From an uncultured Acidimicrobiia bacterium (lineage in GTDB: Bacteria > Actinomycetota > Acidimicrobiia > Spongiisociales > UBA11373), in contig CAZEHO010000002.1 in NCBI GenBank assembly GCA_964511945.1, forward strand, positions 18,175 through 82,174: DNA of 64,000 nucleotides. The letters are read 5' to 3'. Shown in pieces: positions 5,060 through 23,272 of this stretch. The notes under the pieces were generated by a model that was not told where the DNA came from, ran no database searches, and worked only from the letters and a program-made list of their open reading frames with translations. The first letter of the stretch is position 1; each line of letters opens with the position of its first letter. The translations under genes and the position numbers were made by a program.

Positions 5060-5326
5060 CTACAGCCGGAGGAAGAGTTTCTCCAACTCCAGGGGCGTGT
5101 AGCCCTCGTCGGCGGCCACATCCGGATCGGCCAGACATTGGGTGAGGGTTTGCGAAACGAACTGATATCCGGCTCGCCGCAGCGCCTGCGTGGCAGCTGC
5201 GAACTGAGTCGCTACATCGCGGCATTCACGGCCTTCTTCGAGCATGCCGGCGATCCCCCGGATCTGCCCCTCGACCCGGTGGAGGCGGCGGATGAGATCG
5301 CTGCGTTCTGCTTCATCGAGTTGCAT
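5060..5326 (-). CDS. CsoR/RcnR-family metal-sensing transcriptional repressor (DUF156)
   Basis: In-frame ATG at 5326 gives an 88-aa protein MQLDEAERSDLIRRLHRVEGQIRGIAGMLEEGRECRDVATQ...QCL with the conserved CsoR helices and a Cys/His ligand pattern. Confidence 0.8.
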   Translation of the reverse strand: MQLDEAERSDLIRRLHRVEGQIRGIAGMLEEGRECRDVATQFAAATQALRRAGYQFVSQTLTQCLADPDVAADEGYTPLELEKLFLRL

Positions 5327-16996: not shown

Positions 16997-18121
16997 ATGG
17001 CATCCGTCGAGCTGCGCGGAGTCACGGTCCGCTTCGGAGACACCGCCGTTCTCGACGACATCGACCTGTTCGTTGCCGATGGGGAACTCGTTGTGGTCAC
17101 CGGGCCCTCGGGCAGCGGCAAGACGACGATTCTGAGGACGGTCGCCGGGTTCGTGAATCCTGAGGCAGGGTCGGTGTGGATCGGGAACGAGGACGTGACG
17201 CACCGCCAACCGATCAGGCGCGATCTGGCAATGGTGTTCCAGGAGTACGCGCTGTATCCGCAGCGCACCGCCGAGGGCAATATCGAGTTCCCGCTGCAGG
17301 CGCGACGGGTGATCCCCGAATCGGAGCGCAAGGAACGCGTTCGCCGCGAAGCCCGCAACTTGCGAATCGAGCACATCCTCGACCGCAAGCCCCGGGAACT
17401 GTCGGCCGGCCATCAGCAGGCGGTGGCGACTGCCCGGTCCCTGGTCCGGTCGTCACAGGCACTGCTCTTGGATGAGCCGTTGTCGAACCTGGATGCTCGT
17501 TTTCGTGCCGAGGGAAGGGTCGAGCTGCGCCGGATCCATCGTGAGGTGGGGGCGACGTTTCTGTATGTGACCAACGACCAGAGCGAGGCGATGTCGCTTG
17601 CCGATCGCCTCGTCGTGTTCGACGGGGGCCGGATCCAGCAGTTCGATCCTCCGCGCAAGGTGTACGACGATCCCGCCAATACGTTCGTTGCGACATTCCT
17701 CGGGAGCCCGTCGATGAGCCTGATTCCCGGCGAGTTGGCGGTGGACGGCGACGTCGTCGAGCTGCTGATCGGGACCGATCGCATCCACTTCGATCGGGAG
17801 ACGCTCGACGGCATGCCGTGGTACCCGCAGTGGGATGGCCGGCCGATCACCGTCGGGATCCGGCCGGAACACCTGGCTCCGGCATCGGGGTCGGAACCGT
17901 TCGTTCGGACCCTCCACGGCCGGGTGTCGGCGGTCGAAAATCTCGGCGGTGCAGCCATCGTCACGGTTGGTCTCGGCATCCGGGATGTGGATGTGAAGGT
18001 GTGGCTGCGGGCACCGGCGCGGCTGGAGGTCGGCGATCCGCTCGAGCTCGCCGTGTCGCTCGGGCGGCTGAGATTCTTCGACCCAGAGACGGGCTCGGCT
18101 CTCCTAGCATCCCGCCCATGA
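16997..18121 (+). CDS. orphan MalK/UgpC/MsiK-type sugar ABC transporter ATP-binding protein
   Basis: Walker A GPSGSGKTT, signature LSAGHQQ, Walker B LLLDEPLSNLD, plus a C-terminal TOBE/MalK regulatory domain. No permease or SBP adjacent. Confidence 0.85.
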   Translation: MASVELRGVTVRFGDTAVLDDIDLFVADGELVVVTGPSGSGKTTILRTVAGFVNPEAGSVWIGNEDVTHRQPIRRDLAMVFQEYALYPQRTAEGNIEFPLQARRVIPESERKERVRREARNLRIEHILDRKPRELSAGHQQAVATARSLVRSSQALLLDEPLSNLDARFRAEGRVELRRIHREVGATFLYVTNDQSEAMSLADRLVVFDGGRIQQFDPPRKVYDDPANTFVATFLGSPSMSLIPGELAVDGDVVELLIGTDRIHFDRETLDGMPWYPQWDGRPITVGIRPEHLAPASGSEPFVRTLHGRVSAVENLGGAAIVTVGLGIRDVDVKVWLRAPARLEVGDPLELAVSLGRLRFFDPETGSALLASRP

Positions 18122-18996
18122 GCGAACGAAGAGCTCGCAAGCGCGGCGCATCGGAACTCCGCCGGACGATCAAGCGTGCGATCCAGGAGGGACGGAGTGG
18201 CCGGGCCGGGTCCGCGGAACTCGGAGAGACAATTCAGCGAGCGATCGCGGCCCAAATGGTACGGAAGTTCCGTGAGCGGCCCGAGGTGGCGCGGAAGCTC
18301 GTCGAGGCCGGCCTCATCGACGAGGACTACGCGAACGTCGATCCGGCCACCATCGAGGATCCGGTGCGGTTCCTTCGCGAGTTCGGATCGGCGCTCGCCG
18401 AACGGGTCCGGGAGCAGCCCTCCACGCTCGCCCGGCTCGACCTGAACGCCGTGGAACTGATGGGCCAGGATTCGATCGGGACCACCCAGGCGGTCGCCGA
18501 ATCGACCCGGGACGATCGGGTGGTCCTGTTCACCGATCTCGAAGGGTTCACGTCCTTCACCGAGGACGAGGGTGATACGGCGGCAACCGAGCTGCTGACC
18601 GGGCACTACCAGGTGGTACAGGGCGTCGTTCGGTCTCGCGGCGGTGAGGTCGTGAAGCGCCTCGGCGACGGCCACCTCCTCGCGTTCCGGGCACCGGAGG
18701 CGGCGGTGATGGCAGGGCTCGAGATCGTCGAGTTGGCTCCCGATCCGTTGCGGCTGCGAGCGGGCGCGCACGCCGGCGAGGTGATGGTCTCCTCAGACGA
18801 CCTGCTCGGTCATGTGGTGAACATCGCTTCACGGGTTGCCGGTTCGGCGGGGGGCGGCCAGGCACTGATCACCGGAGCGGTGCGCCGGGATGCGGCCGAG
18901 CTGGCCGGTATCGAGTACGTGTCGACGCCGCCGCGGCCGCTCCGGGGGCTCGATGAACCGATGGCCCTCTGGGAGGTTCACCGGGTTCCGCGGTAG
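18118..18996 (+). CDS. class III adenylate/guanylate cyclase domain protein
   Basis: ATG at 18118 overlaps the ATPase stop (ATGA). C-terminal CHD domain: VVLFTDLEGFTSFTE...KRLGDGHLLAF...GAHAGEVMV...GHVVNIASRV. Confidence 0.8.
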   Translation: MSERRARKRGASELRRTIKRAIQEGRSGRAGSAELGETIQRAIAAQMVRKFRERPEVARKLVEAGLIDEDYANVDPATIEDPVRFLREFGSALAERVREQPSTLARLDLNAVELMGQDSIGTTQAVAESTRDDRVVLFTDLEGFTSFTEDEGDTAATELLTGHYQVVQGVVRSRGGEVVKRLGDGHLLAFRAPEAAVMAGLEIVELAPDPLRLRAGAHAGEVMVSSDDLLGHVVNIASRVAGSAGGGQALITGAVRRDAAELAGIEYVSTPPRPLRGLDEPMALWEVHRVPR

Positions 18997-19310
18997 GCCC
19001 TCACCTGCACTCGCTCGGTCGTCACCAGCCCGTCACCGACCATCTCGTCGAGTTCCGGGAGTACGGCCTCGATTTGCTCCTCGCGATCGACACACTCGAT
19101 CACGATCGGCAGGTCCTCAGAGAGCCGCACGATCGACGAGGTATGGAGCCTGGTCGATTGGCCGTACCCCTCGATCCCCTTGAGCACGGTCGCCCCGGCG
19201 AGGTCGTGGCTCCGTAACAGTTCGACAATCGCCTGGAACAGCGGCCGGCCCTCGAAACGATCGTCCTCGCCGATGAAGATGCGGAGCAGCAGATGGGCGG
19301 GGTCATTCAT
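18978..19310 (-). CDS. DUF190 (PII-like) protein, fluoride-operon associated
   Basis: MNDPAHLLLRIFIGEDDRFEGRPLFQAIVELL...ATVLKGIEGYG is the DUF190 family. Sits downstream of the crcB pair. Confidence 0.8.
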   Translation of the reverse strand: MNDPAHLLLRIFIGEDDRFEGRPLFQAIVELLRSHDLAGATVLKGIEGYGQSTRLHTSSIVRLSEDLPIVIECVDREEQIEAVLPELDEMVGDGLVTTERVQVRAYRGTR

Positions 19311-19314
19311 GAGC

Positions 19315-19662
19315 TCAGTCTGTCAGGTGGAACCCCAGCGCGCACAGGGCGACACCTGCAACGAGCGGCAACACCACATTGACCAGTGCCCGCCGGTGCT
19401 GGCCGGTCAAGAGGAGCCCGAAGCTCTCAAAGCTCCATGTCGAGAACGTCGTGAACCCACCGAGAAACCCGACGACCCCGGCGGCCGGGATGCCGCCGTC
19501 CGGCAGGGCCCCCGCCGCCAGCCCGATCGCCAGAGCACCGAGGAGATTGACGGCCAGGGTGCCGCCGGGGAAGTGGCCGCTGCGGGCCTGAACCCACCCT
19601 GCGGCCAGGTACCGGCCGACCGCTCCCAGGCCGCCCGCCGCGATGGTGATGGTCGTGATCAT
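19315..19662 (-). CDS. crcB: fluoride ion channel CrcB/FluC, second copy
   Basis: 115 aa with FLGGFTTFSTWSFE signature. ATG at 19662 inside the long ORF 19315..20310. Overlaps the upstream crcB by ATGA. Confidence 0.85.
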   Translation of the reverse strand: MITTITIAAGGLGAVGRYLAAGWVQARSGHFPGGTLAVNLLGALAIGLAAGALPDGGIPAAGVVGFLGGFTTFSTWSFESFGLLLTGQHRRALVNVVLPLVAGVALCALGFHLTD

Positions 19663-20057
19663 CGGCGCTCCCCGACGGCATGGCCCGCCCATGCTCCGAG
19701 GAGGCCGAGGATCGTGGATCCCGCGCCGTACCCGATGGCCGACGCGGCACGCCCCGCTTCCAGCAGTTGAACGGTCTCGAGGGCAAGGGCGGAGAACGTA
19801 GTGAACGATCCGAGCAATCCGATGGCCCAGAAGTCGAGTGATCGGGCCGATGAGCGGCTGATCTCCCGACGCGTCAGGTAGAAAGCCGCCGCCGTCGCTC
19901 CGGTGATGTTGACGAGCAGTGTGGCGGCGGGCCATCCGGCAGGGTCCCAGGAGATCCAGGCTCCCGCCGCGGTGCGCAGCGCCGATCCTAGGAGCCCGCC
20001 GGCCAGGATGACGGCAAGGCGTTGTGTGGAACGAAGGTCGATGGAGATCGCAAACAT
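19659..20057 (-). CDS. crcB: fluoride ion channel CrcB/FluC, first copy
   Basis: 132 aa, GLLGSFTTFSALALE signature. Directly preceded by a fluoride riboswitch. Confidence 0.85.
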   Translation of the reverse strand: MFAISIDLRSTQRLAVILAGGLLGSALRTAAGAWISWDPAGWPAATLLVNITGATAAAFYLTRREISRSSARSLDFWAIGLLGSFTTFSALALETVQLLEAGRAASAIGYGAGSTILGLLGAWAGHAVGERR

Positions 20058-20069
20058 GGCTCGGTTGGG

Positions 20070-20121
20070 GGGTAGGAGCCATCAGCCCGGGCGGGCGGTT
20101 TCGGCGAGCTCCATCGCCGTC
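20070..20121 (-). ncRNA. fluoride riboswitch (crcB RNA motif)
   Basis: Minus-strand sequence GGCGAUGGAGCUCGCCGAAACCGCCCGCCCGGGCUGAUGGCUCCUAC aligns almost position by position with the Thermotoga fluoride riboswitch (GGCGAUGAGGCCCGCCCAAACUGCCCUGAAAAGGGCUGAUGGCCUCUAC). It ends 14 nt before the crcB ATG. Confidence 0.8.
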
Positions 20122-20243
20122 GGCGTGATCGTACCGGACCCGCCACCGCAGCAGCGGGAGGGCTCCAGGGGTCGGTTCCGATCTTCGGGGTTGATCAAGG
20201 CAGCGGTCGTGGAAGAATCCCCAATGATGCTGACACAGGAGGG

Positions 20244-20762
20244 GTGATGACACGAAGCCATGTTTCATGGCGCGGAGCGGCTGTGCTCCTGGTGGCGGTG
20301 TTCGCCACACTGCTGACCGCTTGCTCTGAGGAGACGCCTGCAGCCGAGATCGTCGACGACCGTCCCGAGGTGGCCCGCGCCGACCTCAGCGGCATCGAGG
20401 TCGAGGTCCATCGGGAGCCCGGCTGAGGATGCTGTGGTGATTGGTCTGATTACATCGCAGACCACGGTGCAACGGTCGTTGCATCCGACGATCCGCAACT
20501 GAACAGTTTCCGGGAGGGCCTCGGGGTCCCACCGGAGGTCTTCTCGTGCCACACCGCCATCGTCGACGGCTATGTGGTCGAAGGGCACGTGCCCGCCGAG
20601 GCCGTCGTCCAGCTCCTTGCGGAGCGGCCGGACGCCGTCGGCATCGCGGTTCCGGGCATGCCGGCGCTGTCTCCCGGCATGGGCGGGGACCGCGGGGATT
20701 GGCTCGACCTCGATGTCGTCCTGATCGGGTTCGACGGGAGCCTGTCACCTTTCCAGTTCTGA
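20244..20762 (+). CDS. DUF411/CopG-family periplasmic lipoprotein interrupted by an in-frame TGA at the first Cys of the CxCC motif (selenocysteine candidate or pseudogene)
   Basis: The ORF track splits this into 20244..20426 (signal peptide plus lipobox LLTAC) and 20574..20762. Hand translation shows one continuous frame: ...EVHREPG-TGA-GCCGDWSDYIADHG...SCHTAIVDGYVVEGHVPAE...GIAVPGMPALSPGMGG. That covers the DUF411 motifs CxCC-W, SCHTA, EGHVP and GMPxxSPGM. No in-frame ATG/GTG/TTG lies between the TGA (20424-26) and 20571. A 7-bp hairpin TGGTCTG-N9-CAGACCA begins 15 nt after the TGA. Confidence 0.55.
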
Positions 20763-20780
20763 GAAACCGGGAATGTCCTA

Positions 20781-20826
20781 CCCCTGGGTCGATGTTTAGT
20801 ACTAAAGTATGACATCGACTCAGGGG
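20781..20826 (+). promoter_or_regulatory. AT-rich palindromic hairpin overlapping the heliorhodopsin RBS
   Basis: CCCCTGGGTCGATGT-TTAGTACTAAAGTATG-ACATCGACTCAGGGG has ~14-bp arms with one mismatch. Its loop carries the perfect palindrome TTAGTACTAA. The 3' arm contains the GGGGAAG Shine-Dalgarno for the ATG at 20832. Confidence 0.4.
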
Positions 20827-20831
20827 AAGAC

Positions 20832-21611
20832 ATGACCACCGTGACCGCTGAGACTGCCGTGCCGATGGTTCGGCTCCGCCGGCTCAACCTCATCGTTGGG
20901 CTGGCCCATCTGATTCAGGGGGTCCTGATCCTGGTACTGAGCAGCGGGTTCTCGATCCCGGTGCTCGCTTCGTTCGCCGACGGACCTCCGGGGACGCCTC
21001 CGCCACCAGCATCCATCCTGTTCGAGATGCCGTTTGCGGTGGTGATCGCGATCTTCTTGCTCTTCGCCGCAGCCGACCACCTGCTCATGGCGTTTGGTGG
21101 GGTCCGCCGCTGGTACGAGAGCAACCTGCGCAGGACCGTCAACTACGCCCGCTGGATCGAATACTCGATCAGCTCGTCTCTGATGGTCGTGCTGATCGCC
21201 ATGCTCACCGGCATCGTCGATTTTTTCGCCCTGCTCGGATTATTCGGGGTGAACGCCTCGATGATCCTGTTCGGGGCGCTCCAGGAGCGGTTCAATCAGC
21301 TCGACAAGGACAATGTCGATTGGTGGCCGTTCATCTTCGGAACCATCGCCGGGAGCGTCCCGTGGATCGCAGTGGCGTTCTCCATCGGTGGAGCAGTGCA
21401 GGAGGGCAACGGCGTTCCCGGCTTCGTGTTCGGAATCTTCGTGTCCCTGTTCATCTTCTTCAACAGCTTCGCCATCAACCAGGTGCTGCAGTACCGCCGG
21501 GTGGGGAAGTGGCGGGACTATCTGTACGGCGAGCGGGCCTACATCCTGCTCAGCCTCGGGGCCAAGACCGCGTTGGCCTGGCAGGTGTTCGGCGGAACGC
21601 TGGCCGGCTGA
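20832..21611 (+). CDS. heliorhodopsin
   Basis: 259 aa, 7 TM. Block-wise identity to heliorhodopsin 48C12: NLIVGLAHLIQ, DGPPGT, RWIEYSISSSLMVVLIA, LLGLFGVNASMILFGALQERF, PGFVFGIFVSLFIFFNSFAINQVLQY..KW.DYLYGERAYILLSLGAKTALAWQVFGGTL. The retinal Schiff-base Lys (in SLGAKTALAWQ), the counterion Glu (in RWIEY) and the conserved His are present. Confidence 0.9.
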   Translation: MTTVTAETAVPMVRLRRLNLIVGLAHLIQGVLILVLSSGFSIPVLASFADGPPGTPPPPASILFEMPFAVVIAIFLLFAAADHLLMAFGGVRRWYESNLRRTVNYARWIEYSISSSLMVVLIAMLTGIVDFFALLGLFGVNASMILFGALQERFNQLDKDNVDWWPFIFGTIAGSVPWIAVAFSIGGAVQEGNGVPGFVFGIFVSLFIFFNSFAINQVLQYRRVGKWRDYLYGERAYILLSLGAKTALAWQVFGGTLAG

Positions 21612-21663
21612 CATGACGCCTTCGGGCCTGCGCCCCCTTGCTCTTTCCCCGGGCGAGGGGGCG

Positions 21664-22251
21664 CTACCGCGCCGGTTGCGGAACGCCGACCGGGATCAGG
21701 TACAGCGGCAGGTCGTCGGCCCCCAGGCCGAGCACGGTGCACACGGCGGCCTCGTTGAAGGATCCAACCGGCACGGCCCACAGCCCGATGGATTCCGCCG
21801 CCAGCAGTACGTTCTGCCCGATATGGCCGGCCTCGAGCTTCACGTAGAGCTCGGCACGTTCCCCGTACTTGGCTGCGGTGCGAGCCACCCGGGCGGTGGC
21901 GACGACGGTGAGCCCGGCACGAGCGACGACATCCTGGCTGCCGCACGTAGCCGCCAGAGCCGATCGAACGTCGGCGCGGCCTGAGATCTCGACCGAGTGG
22001 GAATCACCCCGGTACGGGCCGTACCAATCGGGCGTCACCGCGACGACCATCATCGGGTCGGTGAAGCCGGCCGACGGTACGGTGCGGCGGCCGTCGTCGG
22101 AGGTGACGCCGTGGGCGGCCCACAGGACCAATGCGAGCTGTTCCGGGGTGAGCGCCTCGCCGGTGTAGTCGCGGCGAGAACGTCTGGTACCGAGCACCGT
22201 CGTCAGTGCCGGCCCGTCGATGGGAATCGGTGGCAGGTTGATGGTGTCCAT
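21664..22251 (-). CDS. SagB-type dehydrogenase / nitroreductase-family protein
   Basis: 195 aa from the ATG at 22251 (MDTINLPPIP...). TRRSRRDYTGEALTPEQLALVLWAAHGVT...KLEAGHIGQNVLLAAESIGLWAVPVG is the nitroreductase/SagB fold. Confidence 0.7.
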   Translation of the reverse strand: MDTINLPPIPIDGPALTTVLGTRRSRRDYTGEALTPEQLALVLWAAHGVTSDDGRRTVPSAGFTDPMMVVAVTPDWYGPYRGDSHSVEISGRADVRSALAATCGSQDVVARAGLTVVATARVARTAAKYGERAELYVKLEAGHIGQNVLLAAESIGLWAVPVGSFNEAAVCTVLGLGADDLPLYLIPVGVPQPAR

Positions 22252-22294
22252 GCAAGAAGTCTCGCGCAGCTGTGCCCGGCATAGACTCGCCCGC

Positions 22295-23272
22295 ATGCCC
22301 GAACTCCCCGAACCGATCGAAGGACATCCGTGGCGGCCCGTCACCGTCGACGATGCGGAAGCCCTCGCCCGGCTCCACGCGGCCTGCCATGCAGTGGACG
22401 GTGGGTACCTGATGGTGCCCTCGGAATATCGCGACGATCTGAACCACCCGGCCAACGATGCCGCTGCCGACACCATCGGGGTCTTCGATGAGTCGGGCGA
22501 GGCGATCGCGTTCGGGTACGCGTTCATGACCGGGGGTGAGGTCTCGACCCACCGGGTGTACCCGTGGGCGGAGGTCCATCCCGAATACCGACGCCGCGGG
22601 ATCGGGACCGCGCTGCAGACCTGGCTGGAGCGGCGGGCGATGGAGCGCCTGGAGTCCTGCGACGATGGGCTGCCCTCGACTATCCGGCTCGGTGCGTACT
22701 CCGATCAGGCCGATCGAATCGAACTGTTCGAGCGGCTCGGATTCGAGCCCGTCCGGTACTGGAGCGAAATGCTGCGGGATCTCTCACTGCCCTTCCCTTC
22801 GCTGCCGCCGATGCGCGGTATCGCGATCCTCGGCTGGTCGGAGGTGAACAAGGAGGCGGCTCGCGAGGTGCACAACCAGGCATTTGCGGATCACTGGGGG
22901 TCGGAACCGGTGAGCCCTGAAGGGTGGGAGCACCGGTTCAACGAGTTCTTCCTGCCCGAGGCGTCGTACGTTGCATACGACGGCGAGACCCCGGTCGCCT
23001 ATCTGACGTCGGCGATGTATCCGCACGATTTCGAGTCGCGAGGACGGACTGAAGCCTGGATCGAGGGGTTGGGCACCATCCGGTCTTGCCGCGGCCGCGG
23101 TATCGCCACCACCATGCTCCTTGAGGCGTTCGCCCGGTATCGCGATCGGGATCTGCAATACGCAGTCATCGGGGTGGATGCGGAGAACCCGACCGGAGCG
23201 GTCGGCCTCTACGAGAGGATGGGTTTCGTCACCGAGAAGCAGTCGGTCACGTACGCCAAGTCGTTCGACTGA
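22295..23272 (+). CDS. tandem-GNAT N-acetyltransferase, MshD (mycothiol synthase)-like
   Basis: Two GNAT cores (EYRRRGIGTALQ and CRGRGIATTMLLEAF). ATG at 22295 chosen. Confidence 0.7.
   Translation: MPELPEPIEGHPWRPVTVDDAEALARLHAACHAVDGGYLMVPSEYRDDLNHPANDAAADTIGVFDESGEAIAFGYAFMTGGEVSTHRVYPWAEVHPEYRRRGIGTALQTWLERRAMERLESCDDGLPSTIRLGAYSDQADRIELFERLGFEPVRYWSEMLRDLSLPFPSLPPMRGIAILGWSEVNKEAAREVHNQAFADHWGSEPVSPEGWEHRFNEFFLPEASYVAYDGETPVAYLTSAMYPHDFESRGRTEAWIEGLGTIRSCRGRGIATTMLLEAFARYRDRDLQYAVIGVDAENPTGAVGLYERMGFVTEKQSVTYAKSFD

Follow-up and report, generated by a model that had tools for sequence, protein, structure and literature searches.

A heliorhodopsin next to a CopG-like candidate selenoprotein gene in an actinobacterial housekeeping region: a gene pairing confined to two closely related genomes

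Introduction

The function of heliorhodopsins (HeRs) is still open, so that a truly conserved neighbouring gene would have been a valuable lead. Partner systems have been published for AbHeR with glutamine synthetase, TfHeR with a photolyase and OcHeR with the ABC transporter OmrDE (PMC9529153, PMC9769723, PMC11109279). These HeRs belong to the same family as the one described here and presumably act in the same way, the light-activated HeR binding and modulating its partner. The window analysed in this study, a 64-kb stretch of DNA from an uncultured Acidimicrobiia bacterium, carries an HeR gene immediately downstream of a gene for a DUF411/CopG-like lipoprotein. An initial annotation, made from the sequence alone, put forward the conserved co-transcription of these two genes as a functional clue for HeR. 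Does the gene order at this locus point to a partner?

The evidence presented below gives us good confidence that this is a canonical HeR, likely a slow-cycling sensor, that its adjacency to the DUF411 gene is accidental, and that it appears to have a palindromic control element of its own. The DUF411 gene attracts interest for another reason, namely an in-frame TGA codon at a conserved cysteine position.

The heliorhodopsin gene

The HeR gene (20832..21611, + strand) is an intact, full-length open reading frame with an ATG start and a TGA stop, and encodes a protein of 259 aa. The translated sequence matches the Pfam model PF18761 (Heliorhodopsin) over profile positions 1–242 of 242 (E = 3.3e-96, 321.8 bits, cut-off 26.7 bits) and the NCBIfam equivalog model NF038020 ('heliorhodopsin HeR') with 310.5 bits (cut-off 100 bits), and so lies above both cut-offs over its full length. 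The exact protein is present in public data, and the best HeR matches come from Ilumatobacteraceae/Acidimicrobiia.

The best matches among solved structures are the heliorhodopsins 9ljj, 6su3 (48C12) and 6uh3, with E-values of about 1e-70 over residues 12–257. In the alignment with 48C12 (PDB 6su3; E = 3.7e-70, 240 bits), residues 12–257 of the window protein fall on residues 9–253, and the key residues can be assigned directly: K245 (in SLGAKTALAWQ) corresponds to the Schiff-base lysine K241 in TM7, E110 (RWIEYSISSS) to the counterion E107 in TM3, H26 (AHLIQ) to H23 and H83 (ADHLL) to H80. The HMM search and this alignment bear out the initial annotation, which had identified 20832–21611 as a heliorhodopsin from a TM7 Lys, a TM3 Glu and a TM1 His; both the Lys and the Glu are retained on careful alignment. 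Across an alignment of 28–29 HeR homologues, E110, H83 and K245 never vary, and H26 is almost always retained (at least 90%). The roles given here to Glu107 and the Schiff base follow PMC10434121 and PMC9726877.

The protein aligns at full length and without large gaps with 48C12 (6su3/6su4/6uh3) and with other HeRs from Actinobacteria and Chloroflexi. It shares with these 48C12-type HeRs the Schiff-base Lys, the single counterion Glu and the two His, together with the sequence blocks RWxEYSxSSS, NASMILFG, PGFVxGI, FNSFA and AKxALAWQ. The family-defining features are all alike; the genomic context alone differs, and it is not conserved. The window HeR adds one more protein to a known family, and the context in which its gene lies is neither remarkable nor conserved. 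Three arginines (R14, R16 and R17) precede TM1, in agreement with the positive-inside rule, and homology to the solved structures suggests the inverted topology, in which the N-terminus would be cytoplasmic.

Genomic surroundings

Pfam searches of the window ORFs revealed a housekeeping setting (RsmI, MetRS, TatD, IspE, GlmU, YjbQ, L25, Pth, Mfd and enolase), as the initial annotation had described it. The annotation had also listed neither retinal-biosynthesis nor microbial-rhodopsin partner genes in the window, and Pfam agrees: among about 50 further ORFs of the 64 kb, no blh, crtB, crtI or crtY and no second rhodopsin was detected. The same searches of the 64-kb window returned no LitR-like, photolyase or fasciclin gene, and no selA, selB or selD. 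The only tRNAs in the window are tRNA-Gln and tRNA-Leu.

On the 5' side of HeR, a gene for a MalK/UgpC-like orphan ABC ATPase (16997..18121, +) is followed by an adenylate/guanylate-cyclase-domain gene (+). The mechanically called ORF of the latter, 17818–18996, exceeds its orthologues (269 aa) and overlaps its neighbour; its real start is probably near 18190. On the opposite strand lie a DUF190 gene (18978–19310, −), two crcB genes (19659–20057 and ~19315–19680, both −) and a fluoride riboswitch (20066–20127, −; Rfam RF01734, 53.9 bits), which together form a crcB-crcB-DUF190 operon under the riboswitch, divergent from the DUF411 gene (20247..20762, +).

On the 3' side, HeR converges with a nitroreductase-family gene (21664..~22260, −; start uncertain). 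Its called ORF, 21664–22527 (−), is longer than the orthologues (193–194 aa) and overlaps the adjacent gene, and the real start is probably near 22250. The initial annotation had named a convergent SagB-type dehydrogenase here. The convergence stands, but the likeness to the SagB type is no more than a resemblance, with a SagB-domain score of 59 bits against a cut-off of 78.4 bits. Further 3' are genes for a double-GNAT protein (weakly MshD-like), a DUF1295 protein, a YeiH-family protein and an SLC12-type permease, and then L25, Pth, GlpK, Mfd and enolase.

Together with the window, the closest available loci, with HeRs at least 79% identical to that of the window, provide five contexts of one clade. 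L001 (HeR 80% identical) is fully syntenic with the window, including a DUF411 gene that is split in the gene calls. In L002–L004 (79%) the ABC ATPase gene lies 78 nt 5' of HeR, the 2.7-kb block from the cyclase to the DUF411 gene is missing and the downstream genes are the same. The HeR gene of L183 (81%) is preceded by the end of the ABC ATPase gene, and that of L181 (79%) by a divergent metallo-beta-lactamase-like gene. More distant are L006–L009 (HeR 64% identical), with an ABHD18 hydrolase gene upstream, an OmpA-family gene downstream and DUF411 absent. The hydrolase gene of these four loci, of the ABHD18-type alpha/beta class, is on the same strand as HeR, stops 26–50 nt 5' of it, and corresponds to one of the neighbour groups of Kim et al. 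2024, 'alpha/beta hydrolase'.

For a wider comparison, 80 HeR loci were taken from species-representative genomes with HeRs 50–65% identical, covering Acidimicrobiia, other Actinomycetota, Chloroflexota and some archaea and Firmicutes; 72 of the 80 include at least 1 kb of upstream sequence. Outside the clade, none of the cyclase, DUF190, CrcB, nitroreductase, double-GNAT, DUF1295, YeiH and SLC12 genes recurs at HeR in full-length form. DUF1295 gave weak partial matches near HeR at four other loci.

Among the surrounding genes, those conserved within the clade deserve consideration as partners. HeR might work with the nitroreductase-family protein or, by analogy with OmrDE, with the MalK/UgpC-like ABC ATPase. 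The nitroreductase gene is convergent with and adjoins HeR in the clade contexts that have a readable downstream flank (window, L001, L002–L004 and L181), the ATPase gene is co-directional and immediately 5' of HeR in the relatives that do not have the 2.7-kb block (L002–L004 and L183), and ABC transporters are one of the ten frequent HeR neighbour groups reported by Kim et al. 2024. However, neither gene recurs beside HeR outside the clade (the nitroreductase gene in 0 of the 80 diverse loci), and all clade loci lie within one and the same housekeeping arrangement (prs, yjbQ ... L25, pth), so that the order is explained by common descent. Moreover, convergent genes such as HeR and the nitroreductase gene cannot be co-transcribed, and OmrDE are fused exporters, whereas the window ATPase is a soluble subunit of the importer type. 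A working partnership with either neighbour is therefore unlikely. None of the partner genes of the AbHeR, TfHeR and OcHeR systems adjoins HeR in the window, where the nearby ABC ATPase is an orphan subunit of the importer type located 2.7 kb away.

Recurrence of the DUF411–HeR pairing

That HeR lies on the same strand as the CopG-like gene and just 3' of it was correctly noted in the initial annotation: the spacer between the DUF411 stop codon and the HeR ATG is 69 nt long (20763..20831, +), with a Shine-Dalgarno-like GGGGAAG ahead of the ATG. Scans of 20100–21800 detected neither an intrinsic terminator nor a sigma-70 consensus in this spacer and were uninformative. With no terminator found in a spacer this short, read-through from DUF411 into HeR could give a bicistronic transcript in this genome.

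The pairing itself does not recur beyond one close relative. A search with 120 DUF411 proteins found DUF411 within 6 kb of HeR in 0 of the 80 diverse HeR loci. Conversely, HeR was found in 0 of 91 DUF411-anchored loci, 71 of which extend at least 0.9 kb downstream; here the usual company of DUF411 is metal homeostasis (ArsR, P-type ATPase, DUF3703, SCO1, or FeoAB), and is not light-related. Even among close relatives with HeRs 79–81% identical the adjacency is unstable, with DUF411 present in two of the five clade contexts (window and L001) and absent from L002–L004, L181 and L183. DUF411 is not listed among the ten frequent neighbour groups of Kim et al. 2024, and neither DUF411 nor a copper gene is mentioned in two published HeR neighbourhood studies.

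Because the pairing with the CopG-like gene is found elsewhere solely in the syntenic relative L001, it is best regarded as incidental, and the proposal that conserved CopG–HeR co-transcription is a functional clue is not supported. The two genes adjoin through an accident of gene order in one lineage, seen in only two closely related genomes, and a false lead on HeR function is thereby removed.

In the window and in L001, the ABC ATPase gene and HeR are separated by the cyclase-DUF190-crcB-crcB-DUF411 block (~18130–20762), which is missing from L002–L004 (compare L002 5923–6001) and L183. This 2.7-kb block is best explained as a lineage-specific insertion or deletion within a conserved prs-yjbQ…L25-pth housekeeping region.

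A conserved, co-transcribed pair would have linked HeR to extracytoplasmic copper/redox chemistry through the CopG-like (UxCC) lipoprotein. The two genes are indeed co-directional and closely spaced, with no terminator detected between them, they are kept together in L001, and DUF411 is a predicted lipoprotein on the outer side of the membrane, where HeR loops are exposed too. Against this stand the empty searches from both the HeR and the DUF411 side, the loss of the pair in three of the five closest contexts, its omission from the published neighbour lists, and a variable spacer with a separate conserved element before HeR (see below). We consider such a pair very improbable, and we hold it no more probable that the HeR and DUF411 proteins work together at all. 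The same low expectation applies to a lineage-restricted, light-controlled module for extracytoplasmic copper/redox protection, in which HeR would be co-expressed with a selenocysteine-containing CopG-like lipoprotein. If true, such a module would tie a heliorhodopsin functionally to a UGCC selenoprotein not described before, a real link but one restricted to this lineage.

A palindrome upstream of HeR and its possible regulator

With the pairing accounted for as an accident of gene order, the spacer itself offers a different clue to the control of HeR. A perfect AT-rich palindrome, TTTAGTACTAAA, is located at 20795..20806, 36 nt 5' of the HeR ATG, and is a candidate operator or promoter element. 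It occurs once in the 64-kb window, which has a G+C content of 66%. The DUF411–HeR spacer, 69 nt long in the window, measures 184 nt in L001, and the two are otherwise unalignable, yet both retain GTTTAG(T/C)ACTAAAGTATGAC just 5' of the HeR ribosome-binding site. The palindrome is absent 5' of HeR in L002, L181 and L183. Since the spacer changes in length while the palindromic element stays in front of HeR, the gene appears to have transcriptional control of its own. Together with the recurrence of the element before LitR/CarH-like and fasciclin genes in related Acidimicrobiia (see below), this suggests that HeR transcription is independent of DUF411, and possibly light-controlled.

Sites of the form TTTA[GC]NNNTAAA were collected from about 1.4 Mb of fetched loci. 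In high-GC DNA they occur only 5' of HeR, LitR-like and fasciclin genes. Those 5' of HeR are the sites of the window and L001. Upstream of genes encoding an HTH_17 domain and two B12-binding domains, the motif is found in L016 and in L017 (two sites, 23 nt apart), and variants with one or two mismatches precede such genes in L010, L022 and L054. In all five of these loci the same or near-identical 12-mers lie within ~60 nt 5' of the LitR-like gene. In L022 and L054 the palindrome also precedes fasciclin genes that stand beside LitR-like regulators and HeR. The individual TTTAG(Y)(R)(Y)TAAA sites are at ~5959 in L001, ~4230 and ~5271 in L022, ~685 and ~4602 in L054, 1809 and 1833 in L016, 3064 and 3087 in L017, 3233 in L010 and 5957 in L088. 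Of the 80 diverse loci, 12 have a LitR/CarH-like gene within 6 kb of HeR; a fasciclin gene is present in 6 and a photolyase gene in 3.

Secreted fasciclin (FAS1) genes stand beside HeR in L054, L056, L062, L048, L045 and L022, mostly co-directional and directly upstream; in L054, for example, the FAS1 gene (734–1699) is followed by HeR (1794–2573). A fasciclin neighbour is not among the ten HeR neighbour groups of Kim et al. 2024.

The LitR/CarH family comprises AdoB12-dependent, light-responsive repressors, and a palindrome of the TTTAGNNNTAAA type precedes LitR-like genes in related HeR loci, as it does HeR in the window. The LitR-like proteins of the HeR loci combine an HTH domain with two B12-binding domains, the HTH scoring as HTH_17 and not as Pfam MerR. 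The direct repeats described for the operator of Thermus CarH differ from the HeR palindrome. CIRCE and IdeR boxes were considered by inspection as identities of the palindrome and rejected, as their half-site spacing is different. Searching the literature for the palindrome brought up nothing but unrelated primers, and searches combining heliorhodopsin with LitR/CarH returned nothing relevant.

From the sequence pattern, the palindrome may be an operator or part of a promoter in a B12-dependent light regulon. We tentatively propose that HeR transcription in this genome is controlled through the palindrome by a hypothetical LitR-type regulator, an assignment to which we give slightly less than even chances. 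A palindrome common to HeR promoters and to genes for LitR/CarH-like B12 photoreceptors suggests that some HeR genes are members of a light-induced regulon.

Proposed mode of action

By analogy with published 48C12-like HeRs, the window HeR would be a retinal-binding seven-helix photoreceptor of inverted topology, and most likely senses light with a slow photocycle and modulates other proteins, without transporting ions. Light would isomerise the retinal on K245, after which the Schiff-base proton would shift toward E110 and the His pair. A long-lived intermediate could then alter the cytoplasmic or the extracellular surface of the protein and so modulate a partner protein. The gene order at this locus does not point to such a partner. 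The most likely mode of regulation would be light-dependent derepression by a LitR/CarH-like B12-binding regulator encoded elsewhere in the genome, and the retinal would likewise be supplied from elsewhere.

Least probable is the reading that the window HeR, like the viral heliorhodopsin V2HeR3, uses light to transport ions (protons), even though at least one heliorhodopsin is described as transporting protons in PMC9448325. The window protein is closest to the bacterial 48C12-type HeRs (240 bits) and only distantly related to viral HeRs, and the Schiff-base proton of 48C12-type HeRs is reportedly not released to the bulk (PMC9726877).

The DUF411 gene as a candidate selenoprotein gene

The gene upstream of HeR (20247..20762, +) encodes a DUF411/CopG-like lipoprotein (PF04214, E = 3.9e-25) with the lipobox LLTAC, and is a candidate selenoprotein gene with the motif U60-G-C-C. 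Residues 50–152 align with CopG of Pseudomonas aeruginosa (PDB 6wis, DUF411; E = 5e-26), and the motifs xGCC, SCHT, VEGHVP and PGMPxxSPGM are alike in the two proteins. They differ at the first Cys of the CxCC motif, which in the window is encoded by an in-frame TGA (20424..20426, +; …VHREPG-TGA-GCCGDW…) that aligns with the first CxCC Cys of 6wis and would be read as selenocysteine; the motif is otherwise intact (U/stop-G-C-C). The window protein, unlike CopG, is a monoderm lipoprotein, and the contigs that carry the Sec-type subgroup are Actinobacteria-like and of high GC. The CxCC of CopG reportedly binds a copper cluster (Hausrath et al. 2020).

The TGA codon is not a peculiarity of one gene. 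At the column of the first Cys it is found in 16 distinct sequences, compared with 69 homologues that have TGC or TGT. The 16 are the window, L001, L090, L094, L177, L180, L097–L102, L117, L118, L148 and L167, and include 10 of 80 metagenomic DUF411 loci; the TGA-form genes were located at 5304–5816 in L001, 3791–4315 in L090, 1397–1894 in L094, 2794–3309 in L177 and 374–871 in L180. The coding sequence flanking the TGA is conserved and in frame on both sides, and TGA is otherwise a normal stop codon in this genome, the HeR and DUF411 genes both ending in it. Because the TGA recurs, its flanks are conserved in frame and TGA serves elsewhere as a normal stop, these observations argue for selenocysteine rather than a broken gene, and the 'possibly UxCC' reading of the initial annotation is upheld by this conservation. 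Overall, the DUF411 protein is probably a genuine selenoprotein.

A candidate SECIS region, for which the support is partial, lies 17–61 nt after the UGA and consists of two adjacent hairpins at 20441–20465 and 20466–20485 (+), the second with a GGUC tetraloop. In the subgroup of the window (n = 5), the two-hairpin covariation is 0.282 versus 0.126 for shuffled alignments (1/500) and at most 0.129 for slid controls, with 88% of cells paired. In a second TGA-form subgroup, a small hairpin spans +18 to +34. No structure common to all 16 TGA sequences was obtained (0 pairs), the window's own fold after the UGA is not unusually stable (z = −0.47), and an Rfam search of the region with E up to 10 gave spurious matches only.

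The UGCC form of DUF411 is, credibly, an apparently undescribed Sec/Cys family. A 2026 review of more than 110 prokaryotic selenoprotein families has no entry for DUF411, PF04214, CopG or UxCC, literature searches for DUF411 with selenocysteine and for CopG with selenoprotein returned nothing relevant, and NCBIfam has no model for the family. If true, this would extend the bacterial selenoproteome by a metal-cluster protein, the UGCC form of CopG/DUF411. A second selenoprotein (CMD/AhpD-like) beside DUF411 in L094 was considered and rejected, since the sequences on either side of its in-frame stop are unrelated.

Database entries are further evidence against a broken gene. Among the 120 best DUF411 homologues in the database, about 35 are fragments of 102–108 aa that cover only the part downstream of the CxCC position. 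The six that were inspected begin just past the motif, and all four with DNA checked carry an in-frame TGA. Many truncated 'DUF411' entries of 102–104 aa arise because gene callers split or truncate the gene at the in-frame TGA.
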